From Bdellovibrionia bacterium (GTDB lineage: Bacteria; Bdellovibrionota; UBA1018): a stretch of DNA of 49,986 nucleotides. Numbering within the stretch: position 1 is the first letter of the stretch; the number at the start of each line of letters is the position of its first letter. Positions 9,001 to 15,000 of this stretch are shown piece by piece. The stretch is from the NCBI GenBank assembly GCA_045805065.1, contig JBJMMA010000115.1:1-49986 (forward strand), in the 5' to 3' direction. The position numbers were made by a program.

Positions 9001-12000
9001 CTGTCTTGGACGAGGTCAGTACTCCTGCATCGTTAGCGTTGAGCCCCATCTCAGCCATGTAGCGCTGACGGCGCTGACTTGGAAGCTCAGGCAGGGTTCC
9101 ACGAACCTGCTCAATCCAGGCCGGGCTGACCTGCACTTCAATCAAGTCAGGGTCTGGAAAATACCGATAATCCATCGCCTCTTCTTTTGAGCGCTGAACG
9201 GTCGTTACGTTTCGTGATGAATCGTAACCGCGAGTCTCTTGAATAATCCGACCGCCGGCTTTGACGACTTCAATCTGCCGGGCAATCTCATACTCGATCG
9301 CTTTTTCAATGAACTTGAACGAATTGACATTCTTGATCTCAACGCGCGTGCCAAACTTCGTCGAGCCCCTGGGCATCACTGACACGTTGGCATCACAACG
9401 GAAGTTGCCTTCCTGCATATTGCCGTCGCAAATCCCAAGATAGGTCACAACGGCATGAAGGGCGCGAAGATAGGCTCCTGCCTCCTCGGCGCTCTTCATC
9501 TCGGGACCGCTCACGATCTCAATCAGCGGAACGCCCGCACGGTTGAGGTTCACAAGCGAGTAGCCTGACATATGCTGGTTCTTTCCAGCATCCTCTTCCA
9601 TGTGGATGCGCTGGATATTAATGCGGCGCGATCCTTGAGCGGTTTCGATTTCAAGATAGCCGTTCTCGCAAATGGGCTTTTCGTACTGGCTGATCTGATA
9701 GCCCTTGGGAAGGTCAGGATAAAAATAGTTTTTGCGCGCAAAAACGTTTTTCTGACGGATCTCAGACTGAGTCGCCAAACCTGCCTTGATCGCGTACTCC
9801 ACTGCCTTGCGATTCAAGACGGGAAGAGCTCCCGGCTGCCCCGTGCATACAGGGCAAGTGTTTGCGTTGGTTTCAGCGTTGGATTGAACAGGACAGCTGC
9901 AGAAGATCTTGCTCTGAGTGGAGAGCTGGCAATGGACTTCGAGGCCGATGACAGCTTCAAATTCGCCCGACATGGCTTAGCCCCTCCCCTTTTCAAAAGA
10001 TGCCGCAACCGAGATCATCTTCTCTTCGCCAAAGGCTGGCGCGATCAGATGCAAGCCAATCGAAAGCCCCTGTGAATCTGTTCCGCAAGGAAGACTCATC
10101 GCAGGAACACCTGCAAGATTCGCTGGAATGGTGAAAATATCGTTGAGATACATCTGAAGCGGATCGTTGATTTTCTCGCCCAGCTTGAAAGCTGTCGTCG
10201 GCGAGACAGGACCCGCGATCAGATCGACCTGCTCAAATGCGCGATCAAAGTCTTGTTTGATAAGCCTTCGGACCTGGCAAGCGCGTTGGTAGTAGGCTTC
10301 AGAGTATCCTGCCGAAAGTGCAAACGTGCCTAAGATGATCCGGCGTTTTACTTCAGCACCAAACGCAGAGCGCGCTTTTTCATAGAAATCAGCAAGGTCC
10401 CGGACATCGAGTTCGGATGGTCTGTTTCCATAGCGAATCCCATCGTAGCGCGAAAGGTTACTCGAGGCTTCGCTTACCGCGACGATGTAATAGACGGAAA
10501 CCGAATACTGCGTATGCGGCAACGAGATCGGAACAAGCTTTGCGCCCTGGGACTCAAACCACTTGAGAGAGGCTTGAATTGATTTCTCGACTTCAGGGCT
10601 CAGGCCACCCACAAAGTATTCTTTTGGAACTCCGATCTTGAGATTTTTCCAATCAGGAGCGGTACGGGATGCATTCGCAAATGCGCCCTGACTCAAAGTC
10701 CTGCTCGATGATGTTGAATCTTTTGGATCATGCCCGCTCATCGCATCGAGCAAAATGGCAGAGTCTTCTACCGTCATGGTCATCGGGCCAGCCTGATCCA
10801 ATGACGATGCAAATGCCACAAGCCCGTAGCGGCTCACGCGACCATAGGTAGGCTTAATGCCTACAATTCCGCAAAAATGAGCAGGAAGTCGGATCGATCC
10901 GCCGGTATCGGTCCCCAGCGCCGCCACACATTGACCTGCGCGAACAGCGGCAGCCGATCCACCGCTTGATCCACCCGGAACGCGGTCAGGATGCGTGGGA
11001 TGTTTCACAGGACCAAAGGCGGAGTTTTCGTTCGAGCCCCCCATGGCAAATTCGTCCATGTTGAGCTTACCCAGGCTTACGGCACCTGCGCTCTCGAGCC
11101 TCTCAACGACAGTTGCCGTATAGGGCGCGACATAGTTTTCAAGCATGCGGGACGCGCAAGTCGTCTTGGTTCCATCGATCGTGAAGATGTCCTTGATGCC
11201 GAGCGGGATTCCAAGAAGCGGCATCCGATCGCGCGGCACACGACCTTCGCGAGCCAGGATCTGATCCGCAAGCTTGGCTTGCCTCATGGCGCGCTCTTCT
11301 GCGTACGAGAGCCAGGCGTTCTGCGTTCCAGCCTTTGCGGCGTTTAAGTAATCGCGCGTAAGCTCAACGGGTGAGAGAAGCTTCTTATCGAACGCATCAT
11401 GAATCTGAGAAATCGATTGAGGTAAACTCATAGGATCGGAGGCACCTTGTAGCCGTCGTTCAAGACATCGGGTGCGGCATCGAGAACTTTCGATTTGCCT
11501 TCGGCGTTTTTCGGAGAAGGAACAGCAACGTCTTCTCGAAGCGGAGTCTCAAGCTCAAGTGGATGAGTCATCGGGGCAACGCCTTCGACATTCACCTCTT
11601 GAAGTTTTTCCACATACTTGAGGATATCTCCGACTTGGCTGGTAAAGGTCTTGAGCTCTGCGTCCGTCAGTTTAAGGCGCGCCAAGCGCGCCATCTGTTG
11701 AGTCATCTCAATTGAATTTAAAGGCGATTTCGACATGCGCGATCCCTTCTTTAGTCGGCTCAAGCTTAGTCAAAGCGAGGGCAATTTGAAAGTGAAGAAG
11801 CGGCATTAATGCGCAGCGCAATGAGCGGATTCCTTTTAATTTTCACGAACCACGAGCAGCCAGACCAGTCAGGGGCTCTCGCACTGACTGGCAACCTCTA
11901 TGGATGAAGGTAAAAGCCCATCTTTTGTGCCCCCAGCTTCACCACGGCTTGCTGCTGATTATGAGCTCGGCACAAAAGTCTCAGATTAGAGTTCTCCGTT

Positions 12001-15000
12001 TTGCCCCCCAAAGCCAAGGGCTGGATATGATCAATCTCAAGCGCAAACCGTGAACCGCACTTTTTGCCGTCTGAGCTTTGGTAAGAACATTGAGACTGAT
12101 CTCTTTTCCATACTTCGCGCTTTAATGCGGTCGGGACATACCTTGGATTGACGCTTTTGGTCTGTGGCCGTGTCTGAATATTTTGCGTTGCTCTTTTTGA
12201 CTCCGCCGGCGGAGTAAGTTTTTTAAGTGCGAGATCCGCCATACGATGGAAAAGCTCCAAGTAAGACGGATTGGAGTGAACGTGCCCGTCGAGCTCTTTA
12301 ATCTTTTGTAACTTCTCCATCAAAGCGTCATCCGCAATAAATCGAATCTCTGTTTGTGTTGGACTTACAACTCTTTCTTTTTCCTTTGGCAGCGCAGCGG
12401 AAGGATCTAATCCAATAAGGACTTTTTCACACTCTCTTCGGGATTTCCCTTGAAGAGCAAAGACCAGATCTTTCTTTTCTTGCTTTGAAAAAGGCTCTTC
12501 TTTTCTTGTGATGAACCCTTGAATAGTAGACAGAGTGGAAAGACTCACTGCACCCTCTTTTAGAGCAGGCTCGCTTTCCGGAACTTCTGCTAGAAGCTTC
12601 ATTGCTGCAATTCGTCTTCCCGCAGCTGCTTCACTATATCCCAAGGCTTGAACGGCATATTCAAACAAAGAGCCGTAACCCTTTTCCGCAAAGAGCCTTC
12701 GCACCTGGATCTCATGCAAGTGCCATAAGATTTCAGTTGTTAACTTTCTCTCTTCTGCAACTAATGCTTGAGTGGTTCTCAATAGAGCTTCATTGGAAAG
12801 CGCCTTCAGCAAAAGGCCCTTTTGCGATACATGATTTGTAGAAAGGATTTCAAACTTCTGCATGCAGATCTCATATCATCTAAATCTGCATGCTCTAAAA
12901 CGCGTTAAAAAGCCCTATACTAAGCTGATTTTAGAAATTTCTTTTTGAGCTCTCATTTCGCCCGACTTGCTCACTGAAAGAAAACCCTGCTCGCTACGAC
13001 TCAGATAAGTGCAGCTTTTAAAACTTGTCTCAGTTTTACAAAAATAGCTGTCAAGAAAATGAATAAGAAAAGTGCAAAACATTCACTCCGCCGGCGGAGT
13101 AAAAAGAGAGAGCGAGAGATTCCATCGAGATAACTCAATGCAGCATCCCGACTTTGCCATATTCGCTCAGTTTCTAGCTTCCATTACTCAATTCTAGAGA
13201 TAATATTTTAAACATTACCTATTCATTGACACCTATCGACGCATGCCCTACGGAGGGGAAAATGATTCGGACTCTTGTGACCGTTTGCTTGGCGACTTCT
13301 ACTTTGATCAGCTTCAATACATGGGGTGCCGAAGAACAACCTGAGGCAAAGCCGGAAGGAAAAAGCTGGAGAGGCGTCTTTATTGGTGGAGCAAATTTTT
13401 CGGGCGGCACTGACTACACTCTCAAAAACACGGTCACCGGCGCAAGTGCCTCAATCACTGGTGACAGCGCCAAAGCTCAAGCGCTTTTTGGTGCAGAGAT
13501 CACCTATCAAAAGCCTGAATTTCCATTGGGCGGAAGCCTGATTTTTGAGGGCACAAAGTACAAGTACAACGATGGAACTGCAACTGCCGATGGCCAGAAG
13601 TCTTTGCTTCTCATGCCACGCATCGCAGCAAAGGCAGGTCCTGCTGAGATTTGGGCTGGAGTGGGAGTAGGCTTGATGTTCTTGAACATTGACGGCCCGA
13701 CCAGTGCGACACAAAATAACGTCTCGCTTACGCTCCTCGATACCTCATCCACAGGTTTTGCCTGGTCCCCTCGCATCGGTGTGGACTTTGACGTGAACGA
13801 CCAACTTTTCATTGGCGGACAATTTAGCTACACCCAATCCTCTGGAAGCCTTGATATGAGAGCCACAAGCAACGGCACAACAGTACCGCTCTCAGACGAT
13901 TACACTCGCCATTGGATCAGCCTGGCTTTGCGTGTTGGAGCAAAGTTCTAAAATTTAATCCGTAAAGTATAAATAAAAACTCCTCAAAAGCCGATACCGG
14001 TATGATGAGGGGGCCTACTTCCGGGCCATTTTAACCATGACCCAGGCGAGAGCACGGATTTTAACTCGATTTAAATCGGTAACGCTCAGAATCGCATTAC
14101 TTCTCCCCATCTCGCTCGCCCTGGGCCTTACACAAGCTCCAACCGCATGGGCAAAGCCTCCGATCAGCCAATACATTGACTACAATACGTTCGAATTCCT
14201 CGTCAGAAAATGCACCTGGGCTTTGCGTGATGTGAATCAAGTCATCGGCAATGATCCTAACCTCTTCTTTGGAGGTGGCGGATTGCGCGGCGTGATTGGC
14301 TACATTTACAACTCCGTTGAAAAAAGAATTCCAGCCTCGTCGCTCTGCAACAAATTCATCGGCAACGTTGAGAATTTCACGCAGCACGGTGCGGACAAAG
14401 ATCTTTATGTCCGCCCGGGCTATCAACACGTCGGCAATAAGGGTGGTTGGGACATTCTGAGCGCTGAATTTGCGGCAGCAAGCCGCGAAGCAGGGGGAAC
14501 GGCGATCGAAAAAGTGCAAGTCAGGCCCGACGAAATCGTTGATCCCTTTGGAGCGCTTCACTCTTATTATAACGGCGAGCTGAAATACATTGATGTCCCG
14601 GAATCTCAATTCGCAAAGTTTCGCCAAAGCAGTGGAAACGCGGGCCTAAGCTCCAACAGAAAGACCGCGCTGCTTCTGCGCTGGCTGCGCTTTGCAGCGG
14701 ATCTTCCCGGGGTCACGCTTACGCAAGATCAGATCAAAATGGCGAACAAAATCCTGACGGATGAAATTTTGAATGGCCAGATTGAGCCTGGAAATTACTG
14801 GGTGGCCAAGGCTTTGAAGAAGAACTTCACGTCACACGGAGTGCATCACTTTGACAACTGGAAGGACCTTTTCACCACGATTCCGCTCGGATGCTATCTG
14901 GGGGACCTTGGGTACTTTGTCGTCAACGGACATCACAACGTGCCGCTCGCGAAGCTTTTCCCGGCCGAAGACTGCGCAGAAGCGAGAGTCAAACTCTACA

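Follow-up and report, generated by a model that had tools for sequence, protein, structure and literature searches.

In the RAYT system, every subfamily of genes has short GC-rich palindromes of its own type on its flanks, such that enzyme and palindrome co-vary; RAYTs are HUH/Y1 enzymes, and their REP palindromes are extragenic and number in the hundreds. Dimers of ParB, KorB and Noc read palindromes of 13-16 bp. Homing endonucleases such as I-TevI, I-HmuI and T4 MobE consist of a nuclease and a sequence-specific DNA-binding domain connected by a long flexible linker and spread through break-induced gene conversion, and I-TevI also binds an operator at its own promoter that is like the homing site, according to excerpts of PMC2988022 and PMC2790892. 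The DUF222-HNH proteins of REP13E12 (the '13E12 repeat' of Mycobacterium tuberculosis) have a helical N-domain and a C-terminal HNH domain and are encoded in many dispersed copies per genome; excerpts of PMC13061034 and PMC10589994 describe these repeat loci as gene-conversion hot spots of undefined function.

The HNH gene family studied here is a distant DUF222-HNH architecture of the REP13E12 kind, with the same domain order and dispersal. A Pfam DUF222 match was obtained for 11 of 36 family members (best E-value 4.5e-5) and is carried by 21-23% of the members in the Atlas clusters of relatives; the protein of our locus gave none at E <=0.1, and the copies of its genome none at <=0.01. REP13E12 belongs to Actinobacteria, whereas the Atlas relatives of our family are most frequent in another phylum, Bdellovibrionota; in the excerpts of the REP13E12 literature we found no description of paired palindromes. 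It shares with homing endonucleases the modular design and, as we propose, the link to gene conversion; unlike them, it has an intact predicted site in two copies, in and beside its own gene, the converted unit is apparently the specificity module and not the whole gene, and the recipients would be paralogous loci of one chromosome instead of an empty allele. The DNA-binding fold matches that of ParB-type proteins (Z 5.7-6.8); however, no CTPase/ParB N-terminal domain was detected, the family protein is fused to an HNH nuclease, and its dimerisation is predicted through a ribbon-helix-helix-like part. As in REP/RAYT, each gene subfamily has its own palindrome type, but here one palindrome lies inside the ORF and almost all copies are found at family genes or their relics.

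The window gene and its paired palindromes

The window, that is, the whole 49,986-nucleotide stretch analysed, comes from a Bdellovibrionia genome of 262 contigs (G000) and carries the following features.

11898..12863, minus strand: HNH nuclease gene, an ORF of 321 aa with a helical DNA-binding N-part, a disordered linker and a C-terminal HNH domain
13085..13100, no strand assigned: upstream palindrome copy ACTCCGCCGGCGGAGT, perfect over 16 bp, 222 bp 5' of the ATG and 31 bp upstream of the TTGACA box
12200..12215, no strand assigned: inner palindrome copy ACTCCGCCGGCGGAGT, covering codons 217-221 (T P P A E) and the first base of codon 222
13049..13054, minus strand: TTGACA box, 191 nt before the start codon, likely a -35 element

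The product matches Pfam HNH (PF01844) at 3e-7. The first-pass annotation had placed the palindrome both upstream of and inside the ORF, and this was borne out: ACTCCGCCGGCGGAGT has exactly two sites in the window when up to two mismatches are allowed, at 13085-13100 and at 12200-12215, the first residues of the linker (0.02 sites expected; 0 of 100 shuffles of the window reached two). We likewise obtained, by tblastn over all contigs, the same 11 paralogs including the window gene, perfect pairs of three types at the 8 genes named (-230..-800 and +634..+748 from the start) and 11 genomic sites of the 16-mer, of which the four type-1 genes account for 8. The statement that three paralogs lack a pair had to be revised, as C171 alone is without one and 10 of the 11 now carry it, which makes the observation stronger than first described. 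In C165 the pair is a 28-nt non-palindromic inverted repeat, 27/28 identical, at -362..-335 and +689..+716. The C88 paralog represents the 3' portion of a gene, with the 5' portion at the end of contig C126 (10-nt overlap); its upstream palindrome is a former 'orphan' site at C126:17022, and its inner copy has one mismatch. Behind a second 'orphan' stands a relic HNH tail, and another lies where the sister species, G001, has a full element; the 'orphans' are mostly relics.

Around family genes, 20.5 kb of DNA (0.5% of the genome) hold 19 of the 159 perfect palindromes of at least 16 nt in G000. Of 82 distinct family genes, 28 have a perfect palindrome of at least 12 nt in the DNA of the linker (shuffles: mean 1.7, maximum 5), and in the N and C modules such palindromes occur at chance level only. 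Strong pairs were found at 8 of 19 loci in G001. Outside the genus they are rare, 4/54 altogether (2 of 23 one-per-genome loci, 1 of 16 in G039, 1 of 7 in G006 and 0 of 8 in G030), in agreement with the 4 of 27 relatives' loci counted earlier.

All perfect sites are palindromic through the centre (CCGG, GCGC, CCCGGG). In the asymmetric versions the two copies have 21-42 nt in common, inverted in C165, L048 and L042- and direct in L034 and L037; a common stretch of this length is longer than binding requires and resembles the outcome of DNA copying. Microsatellites adjoin the upstream site.

Constraint on the DNA and the predicted protein dimer

In the 15 type-A copies examined, the inner-site codons ACT CCG CCG GCG GAG are almost invariant. 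At 26 invariant fourfold-degenerate columns of the N-domain, taken from 14 of these copies, the commonest third base had a mean share of 0.54 and only 2 columns were uniform. The synonymous positions in the palindrome are frozen and, therefore, it is the DNA that is under constraint. Site types correspond to deep clades of the gene tree. The evidence supports the earlier claim that protein and palindrome co-vary, and the pair as a cis element at the DNA level.

Of 22 copies examined, 17 have a TTGAC[AG] box, which in most copies of three palindrome types stands at -185..-217; it marks the beginning of the conserved upstream module and is likely to be a -35 element. The upstream palindrome lies farther upstream and is, because of this, probably outside the mRNA. 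This bears on an RNA-level role, in which the copies would be mRNA hairpins (terminator, stabiliser or RNase site) or would pair leader with linker. In a simple scan, both copies do register as terminator-like hairpins (the upstream palindrome on the gene strand, the inner one on the opposite strand), and the 28-nt inverted copies, if transcribed together, could pair into a long duplex. However, besides the upstream copy probably not being transcribed, sites perfect through the centre leave no loop, type-C sites are poor hairpins and the pair is kept nonetheless, the extensions in L034 and L037 are direct, non-complementary repeats, and terminator-like matches stand at the shuffle expectation (2 vs mean 2.1). 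The mRNA hairpin raised in the first-pass annotation is a poor fit, and we consider an RNA-level element highly improbable.

Symmetry through the centre suits a dimer on DNA rather than a hairpin loop. In an AlphaFold2 model of the window protein (mean pLDDT 90.6) we distinguish four parts.

12393..12794, minus strand: HTH-bearing helical domain, residues 24-157, resembling the DNA-binding domains of ParB, KorB, Spo0J and VirB
12216..12383, minus strand: ribbon-helix-helix-like part, residues 161-216, two short strands and two helices, main predicted dimer interface
12132..12215, minus strand: linker, residues 217-244, disordered (pLDDT 56-62), Pro/Ser/Thr-rich, of variable length, with the palindrome at its start
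11901..12131, minus strand: HNH (beta-beta-alpha-metal) nuclease domain, residues 245-321, Pfam PF01844

For residues 24-157, VIA-align returned matches to ParB-parS, KorB-operator, Spo0J and VirB DNA-binding domains, namely 6s6h_B (Z 6.8, 108 aligned, rmsd 6.3), 8qa8_A (Z 6.5, 99 aligned, rmsd 3.6), 1r71_A (Z 6.0, 98 aligned, rmsd 3.4), 1vz0_A (Z 5.7) and 3vwb_A (Z 4.6), a range of 4.6-6.8 that is middling and often reached by helical domains by chance; Foldseek rows to ParB and KorB were weak. The ribbon-helix-helix-like part gave VIA rows to TraM (3omy), NikR (1q5v) and TacA (7zg6) at Z 4.5-4.6, and predicted homodimer contacts set residues 171-177 against 171-177. The homodimer prediction for residues 20-222 scored 0.71 against 0.00 for the best control, with at least 99% of contacts agreeing between runs and partner pLDDT of at least 85; this mark is reached by 20 of 30 proteins solved as one-chain pairs and by 1 of 23 single-chain ones, counts that hold roughly only, since our run used its own alignment. 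The HNH domain has PDB profile matches to McrA (6ghc, 5.5e-5) and Gme HNH (4h9d) and a VIA match to GVE2 HNH (5h0o, Z 7.1). Linker length ranges from 21 to 113 residues across 85 family genes in a survey with its own delimitation, under which the window gene has 25. The protein is thus modelled as a symmetric dimer with a ParB/KorB-like HTH and a ribbon-helix-helix-like part.

Such a dimer could simply regulate its own gene: the palindromes would be operators, both bound by the dimer, which would loop out about 1 kb enclosing the promoter and repress a potentially toxic gene, and exchange among paralogs would be ordinary homologous recombination that has nothing to do with the sites. The modelled dimer and its HTH, the co-variation with the protein, the promoter-like box flanked by one site on each side, and repression at a distance as exerted by KorB all fit. 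I-TevI offers a precedent, as it represses its own promoter through an operator resembling its homing site, according to an excerpt of PMC2988022. Nevertheless, the box lies 48 to 616 bp downstream of the upstream palindrome at no fixed distance and without phasing, the 21-42 nt common to the two sites in either orientation exceed the requirements of an operator, a third, inverted copy stands past the stop codon in L034 and L037, and the fixed place of the inner site at the first linker codons is left unexplained. Synteny breaks coincide with the upstream site and the phylogeny of the segment differs (see below). We consider pure autoregulation rather unlikely. Of the earlier reading as a cis element or operator, the DNA-level constraint, the symmetry and the modelled dimer speak for the cis element, but for these reasons it is not simply an operator; a recombination site, offered earlier as an alternative, fits at least as well.

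Element boundaries and probable exchange of modules among paralogs

Synteny of the left flank between G001 and G000 ends 2, 4 and 8 nt before the upstream site in L042-, L048 and L037, and 34, 66 and 74 nt before it in L033, L036 and L050. At L042-, a 1370-bp insert with TTAA at both junctions faces a 29-bp empty site, and in L042- and L048 homology between the paralogs begins at the upstream site itself (-327/-325). At four other G001 loci (L035, L039, L045 and L049) no such close boundary was found: the flank stops 293 to about 980 nt short of the gene or site, and an upstream copy is lacking in L039 and L045. From this comparison, the gene as a whole is present or absent as a unit whose upstream end appears to be the upstream site. 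No palindrome occurs in the empty sites, therefore the site was not a pre-existing target.

These boundaries invite comparison with a classical transposon, with the palindromes as terminal inverted repeats, the HNH protein as transposase and the inner copy as an extra binding site. Up to about 60-70 family matches per genome in relatives, presence or absence between sister species with the left edge at the upstream site, the inverted repeats of about 45 bp at both ends of L034 and L037, and the TTAA junctions would suit it. Against it, a downstream copy was found at only 2 of the 22 G000/G001 loci examined, the right ends of the paralogs have no common sequence, and the copies are old, most of them at 70-80% identity and no two nearly identical along their full length. 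Flank identity of about 80% is too low to establish a target duplication and, to our knowledge, no HNH transposase is known, our searches having returned none. We regard a transposon as improbable.

The segment between the palindromes has a history of its own: it groups by genome, whereas the HNH module groups by locus. The type-A N-module with its upstream region is 74-100% identical among G001 copies and 67-73% identical between these and all G000 copies, syntenic ones included, while HNH modules pair by locus (C99 with L031, C6 with L038, C165 with L043). Between L031 and L032 identity is 96% over -218 to +626, beyond which they diverge, the breakpoints of L031 being intervals that contain the sites (-884..-218 and +626..+874). 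AU tests rejected the syntenic pairs for N-module DNA (p 2.6e-5, 0.006 and 0.034) and, for C-module DNA, the G001 clade (p 0.027) and L031 with L032 (p 0.017), the clades having been picked partly after the trees were seen and synteny having been defined first; for the type-C C-module data the alternative was not rejected (p 0.35). The contrast between the two modules indicates gene conversion bounded by the two sites. It had been reported that paralog similarity ends at the inner copy; it does end nearby, but where the variable linker starts, 0-130 nt short of the copy, and picks up again in the HNH part at lower identity. Conversion could be limited to the N-module as the longest well-conserved stretch amid unalignable DNA, with no part played by the palindromes. 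The N-module of C171/L042+, a pair without palindromes, is 69.6% identical, as diverged as in palindrome-bearing pairs, and therefore provides no rate control.

The promoter has identical sites, palindromic or inverted, on either side at a spacing of about 0.8-1.5 kb, and the palindromic cores lack polarity, such that inversion and deletion would both be possible. This would also suit a switch in which a host or element-independent recombinase inverts or excises the promoter and N-module and turns the nuclease on or off. We give such a switch very little likelihood: the N-module was never inverted relative to the HNH part in a non-exhaustive search (G000, roughly 85 genes), no recombinase gene is linked, site type follows the clade of the gene's own N-domain, and public contigs over the locus, at a depth of 2-5 only, have no joints.

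The nuclease and its putative recognition sites

We favour, at roughly even confidence, the reading that the palindromes are the nuclease's own putative recognition sites, which bracket a specificity cassette that paralogs exchange and also mark where the element ends upstream. Each paralog would be a two-fold symmetric, site-specific DNA-binding nuclease with its HNH domain tethered by the flexible linker, and the GC-rich palindrome would be the recognition site of that paralog's protein. The cassette would comprise, in order, site, promoter, DNA-binding domain and site, with the HNH domain next; protein and palindrome would co-vary because each DNA-binding domain moves together with the sites it reads. 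Gene conversion would swap the cassette among paralogs of one palindrome type, and we infer that it is stimulated when the HNH domain nicks or breaks the DNA beside the bound sites; where the loci are otherwise unique, the short identical sites would be the sole anchors of homology. Arrival of the element at a new locus probably involves these sites too, and binding to both may also repress the enclosed promoter. An intact recognition site within the gene of its own nuclease would be self-destructive, unless the enzyme only nicks or is under tight control.

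A palindrome pair at genes for HNH proteins

The perfect palindrome ACTCCGCCGGCGGAGT occurs twice in the window, once inside and once upstream of a gene for an HNH protein, and no other site is found there even when two mismatches are allowed. The count of two compares with an expectation of 0.02 and was reached in 0 of 100 shuffles.

Features of the locus in the window
11898-12863, reverse strand, ORF of 321 codons with a C-terminal HNH domain (Pfam PF01844, 3e-7)
12200-12215, inner palindrome copy, in the linker DNA; codons 217-221 on the gene strand, ACT CCG CCG GCG GAG, encoding TPPAE
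13049-13054, reverse strand, TTGAC[AG] box
13085-13100, upstream palindrome copy, 222 bp 5' of the ATG

The genome of the window (G000; 262 contigs, 4.22 Mb, 51.7% G+C) holds 11 paralogs as detected by tblastn. The first-pass annotation had reported perfect pairs, made from three palindromes, in eight of them, and we confirmed these at -230 to -800 and +634 to +748; two of the three paralogs that it had set apart as exceptions do have the pair. In the C165 paralog a 28-nt inverted repeat, identical at 27 of 28 positions, occupies the same two places, and the truncated gene on contig C88 has its other part at the end of C126. With an overlap of 10 nt, these contig ends jointly make one family gene, whose upstream copy is the supposed orphan palindrome on C126 and whose inner copy carries a single mismatch. 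The pair is thus present in 10 of the 11 paralogs. The break between C126 and C88 falls inside the repeated N-domain, and contig C39 of G001, the sister species, breaks alike at its gatC-linked copy.

The three palindrome types, of which type A is that of the window gene, have 11, 3 and 9 perfect copies in G000, nearly all of them at family genes or their relics, and 19 of the 159 perfect palindromes of at least 16 nt lie within the 0.5% of the genome around family genes. The family, much expanded in relatives, was found in 28 of the 41 genomes searched, with as many as 61-70 matches in one. Among 82 distinct family genes from six genome sets, the linker DNA of 28 holds a perfect palindrome of at least 12 nt (shuffles: mean 1.7, maximum 5), whereas the N- and C-terminal modules have such palindromes at chance level. 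Outside the genus few genes have a strong pair (4 of 54), and weaker, imperfect pairs are present at the same two places in the relatives' genomes G008, G030, G032 and G035. A scan of genome contigs that started from the palindrome returned at least 119 stretches, from which 80 loci were fetched; among the matches listed most were chance matches in GC-rich genomes, and the single additional paired gene was that of an Oligoflexia MAG (L135/L136), with the same 16-bp palindrome at -76 and +633. This MAG has two more single copies of the palindrome with no family gene inside 1.6 kb. A single-protein scan of metagenome contigs found no relative.

Across 15 type-A copies, drawn from two species, synonymous positions of the motif codons hardly vary, the only variants being CCT (once), CCA (three times) and CTG (once). 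The N-domain serves as the comparison: at 26 of its invariant fourfold-degenerate columns (14 of the 15 copies) the most frequent third base has a mean share of 54%, and no more than two columns are uniform. The palindrome is on this evidence a DNA element and not a peptide motif. A role of the palindromes at the RNA level is unlikely, as every perfect site is symmetric about its centre, with no bases left for a loop, and the upstream copy is probably outside the transcript of the gene. The TTGAC[AG] box lies at -185 to -217 in 17 of 22 copies, across three palindrome types; upstream conservation among paralogs starts at this box, and the upstream copy lies beyond it, which argues that it is not co-transcribed. 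An Rfam scan of window positions 11500-13600 found no family, only a lone sub-threshold row expected by chance, and no pairs were predicted in a consensus structure of the 200-nt leader from 17 copies.

Other short sequences were noticed around these genes. The type-A copies of G001 have a strongly conserved leader of ~190 nt after the box and a TGnTAT-like motif ~20 nt 5' of the ATG, which could mean two promoters or else a long conserved leader. A 12-bp palindrome, TCTGCATGCAGA, covers the start codon of the window gene (12857-12868) and belongs to a ~10-nt inverted repeat, GCATGCAGAT ... ATCTGCATGC, at about 12865-12905, just upstream; the C122 paralog has GCATGCTATAGCATGC at -12. The start-codon palindrome may act as a second operator, or form a hairpin there. 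At L097 (contig C244 of G000) the 14-nt ATGAGCTCATGCAG, which is unrelated to the main palindrome, is found at -552 to -539 and +521 to +534, inverted between the upstream region and the ORF, and its upstream occurrence is part of a 16-bp palindrome.

The encoded protein and its predicted dimer

The window protein scores 30.9 bits with the HNH profile PF01844, above the curated cut-off of 21.4, and belongs to that family together with 35 of 36 relatives. In the alignment of the 36 relatives C259, C269, H279, N293, C298, H301 and N302 are invariant or nearly so. The AlphaFold2 model built from this alignment has a mean pLDDT of 90.6, with residues 217-244 disordered, and its HNH part resembles GVE2 HNH, McrA, Gme HNH and the HNH domains of IscB and Cas9. 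In VIA-align, residues 36-183 match the DNA-binding domains of ParB on parS (Z 6.8), KorB (6.5 and 6.0), Spo0J (5.7) and VirB (4.6). These five members of the ParB/KorB-type family (Z 4.6-6.8, 91-108 residues aligned) stand in a range, Z below 8, that is common by chance in helical models; the match gains weight because five proteins of one family recur despite the middling scores. Foldseek gave the same family weak E-values (0.08-0.7) and returned nothing from the PDB at E ≤0.001. Residues 168-223 align with ribbon-helix-helix proteins, at a middling Z of 4.5-4.6.

A homodimer of residues 20-222 was predicted with a score of 0.71, against 0.00 for the best control, with contact agreement between runs of at least 99% and a partner pLDDT of at least 85. 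Of proteins solved as one-chain pairs 20 of 30 reach the mark used, compared with 1 of 23 among those with single-chain structures; these counts are only rough here because a custom alignment was used. In the predicted dimer strand 171-177 of one chain pairs with that of the other, in the manner of ribbon-helix-helix dimers, and a palindrome of 16-20 bp would suit such a symmetric dimer with two helix-turn-helix units. A plain operator pair acting through DNA looping is a serious rival to the reading of the palindromes as nuclease sites, and may exist alongside it. I-TevI is a tethered nuclease that doubles as its own repressor (PMC2988022).

The DUF222 profile (PF02720) matches 11 of the 36 relatives at E ≤1 (best 4.5e-5), and DUF222 occurs in 21-23% of the members of Atlas clusters of look-alikes; it does not match the window protein at E ≤0.1 and finds nothing in G000 at E ≤0.01. 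We therefore regard the family as a distant relative of the DUF222-HNH proteins, not as a demonstrated member.

Boundaries and relics of the gene and its sites

The synteny comparison covered 20 loci of G001, the sole other species of the genus, against G000; the flanks are only about 75-83% identical and element boundaries are accordingly approximate. The window gene lies directly downstream of gatC-gatA (11428-11763 and 9977-11431), a position shared with G001, and no family gene is found in the gatCA neighbourhood in four other genera. Many family genes of G001 correspond to a gap in G000, and in six loci the conserved left flank stops just before the upstream site.

Distance from the end of the left flank to the upstream site (G001 against G000)
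L042-, 2 nt
L048, 4 nt
L037, 8 nt
L033, 34 nt
L036, 66 nt
L050, 74 nt

L042- gives the clearest example, a 1370-bp insert that begins at the site and stands against a 29-bp empty site in G000; a close left boundary was not obtained at L035, L039, L045 and L049. The palindrome is absent from eight of nine such gaps, the ninth (C159:19264) holding a degenerate left-end remnant, and the site is therefore the element's and not the target's.

Right boundaries lie 35-160 nt beyond the stop codon and have no common sequence. A classical transposon or insertion sequence with terminal inverted repeats is thus unlikely, the right end being missing in 20 of 22 loci: an inverted copy downstream exists only at L034 and L037, and the remaining right ends share nothing. 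As regards a target-site duplication, both junctions of the L042- insert end in TTAA; its flanks are only ~80% identical and its exact ends uncertain. In L039 (G001:C91) a 12-nt unit, CTGGCTAAATAT, is tandemly repeated ~75 nt 3' of the gene.

For the most part the orphan sites are relics; one belongs to the split gene as its upstream copy, and one lies at the spot of a complete G001 element. In G000, at C259:35936-36029, no more than 15 nt separate an orphan type-A palindrome from 22 codons that are similar to the very end of an HNH module (68% identity to L034); the stretch resembles what a deletion would leave of a family gene. Opposite the complete L037 of G001, C259:23488-24849 of G000 (L104) holds an unrelated 407-aa ORF on the other strand and just one palindrome, 25 nt away from the right flank. 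We also considered nested insertion, with the upstream site as a remnant of an older gene's linker; in the 2.5 kb preceding each of 40-odd genes tblastn detected no relic of an N-domain, giving frameshifted or neighbouring genes only, and the idea was rejected.

The orientation of the copies can be read only at imperfect palindromes. In C165, L048, L042-, L043, L044, L046 and L049 the upstream and inner copies have opposite orientations, with identity over up to 21-28 nt, linker codons included. L034 and L037 have these two copies as direct repeats of 31-42 nt, and a third copy, inverted and 3' of the stop codon, places ~45-bp inverted repeats around the whole gene. Since the shared lengths exceed a binding site, these alignments suggest that the two copies are related by copying, through template switching or annealing between self-complementary sites. 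Microsatellites adjoin the upstream palindrome, growing from the site's own sequence.

Microsatellites at or near the upstream palindrome
L032 (G001:C1), (CACT)n before and (CGG)n after
L037 (G001:C138), (GTGCGG)n after
L035, (GCGAGT)n

Separate histories of the two modules

The DNA-binding part (N-module) and the HNH part (C-module) of these genes have different relatives. Nucleotide identity of the N-module is 74-100% among ten type-A copies of G001 and 67-73% between these and every G000 copy, syntenic partners included (C99-L031 69%, C6-L038 71%); the 220 nt upstream follow a similar pattern. From -218 to +626 the identity of L031 with L032 is 96%, and outside this span the two are unrelated; the HNH module of L031 is closest to that of the syntenic C99 (68%, against 49-58% for C99 with other G000 or G001 copies), the orthologous similarity coming back after the linker and continuing into the right flank. 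Protein trees group the N-domains of G001 in one clade (97/96) and pair the C-domains by locus (C99+L031 97/75, C6+L038 97/84, C165+L043 98/95). AU tests on N-module DNA, in a set without L032, it being identical to L031, rejected C99+L031 (p 2.6e-5), C6+L038 (p 0.006) and C165+L043 (p 0.034); on C-module DNA they rejected the G001 clade (p 0.027) and L031+L032 (p 0.017), and did not reject a type-C paralog clade (p 0.35). The breakpoints fall within the two hypervariable stretches that contain the palindromes and can be placed no more finely. The C171/L042+ pair, which has no palindromes, shows 69.6% identity in N and 76.0% in C, the N divergence being the same as in the others; it provides no rate control because it lacks a same-type paralog. 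No N-module was seen in an inverted state in G000, and public contigs at the locus (four DNA runs of one study, depth 2-5, upstream palindrome uncovered) had no joints and no variants.

Our functional statements derive from the comparison of sequences and from structure prediction. On this basis we give even chances to the palindromes being putative cognate sites of the encoded dimeric nuclease, bracketing a cassette (upstream site, promoter, DNA-binding domain and inner site) that would be exchanged among same-type paralogs. A cassette that moves with its sites keeps protein and site matched, which would explain their co-variation. The HNH domain would nick or cut beside the bound sites and thereby drive the exchange, sites of 16-45 bp would serve as homology anchors at otherwise unique loci, and the same sites would also act when the gene arrives at a new locus. 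That the cassette is moreover selfish and self-homing, using the HNH domain resident at each locus to cut its own sites in paralogous loci and overwriting their cassettes, is a bolder proposal that we consider rather improbable; nuclease specificity and target would then move jointly through the gene family.

The nearest known things are the DUF222-HNH/REP13E12 repeats, tethered homing endonucleases and palindrome readers of the ParB/KorB type. A homing endonuclease gene would be expected to cut a defined site in element-free DNA and to be copied in by repair; the module-specific concerted evolution of the present family bears on this only indirectly, and its empty sites hold no palindrome. 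Unlike the REP/RAYT system, with its many dispersed extragenic palindromes and an HUH Y1 transposase, the present family has few palindrome copies, nearly all of them at genes or relics, and an HNH enzyme, and we do not class it there. A 2026 genome paper on Peredibacter counts 10-13 HNH endonucleases in each genome, some of them at sites specific to a strain, and says nothing of palindromes in that passage. Searches of full-text literature outside subscription journals gave no account of genes of this kind having a palindrome pair, one member upstream and the other in the gene.

The mycobacterial REP13E12 loci are described, in a 2026 preprint (PMC13061034) and in PMC10589994, as gene-conversion hot spots without a defined biological function. 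The self-homing logic may explain why the DUF222-HNH (REP13E12) loci of actinobacteria are dispersed, multi-copy gene-conversion hot spots. DUF222-HNH genes are among the commonest dispersed repeats of unknown function in several bacterial phyla, and two putative cognate sites around a DNA-binding module, one of them in frame in the linker, provide this family for the first time with a mechanism open to testing. Should the nuclease target these very sites, the family would represent a new mode of persistence for a homing-type nuclease, by converting paralogs and not by invading empty alleles, and would offer a natural set of matched pairs, each a DNA-binding domain with its 16-bp site, with diverged specificities.
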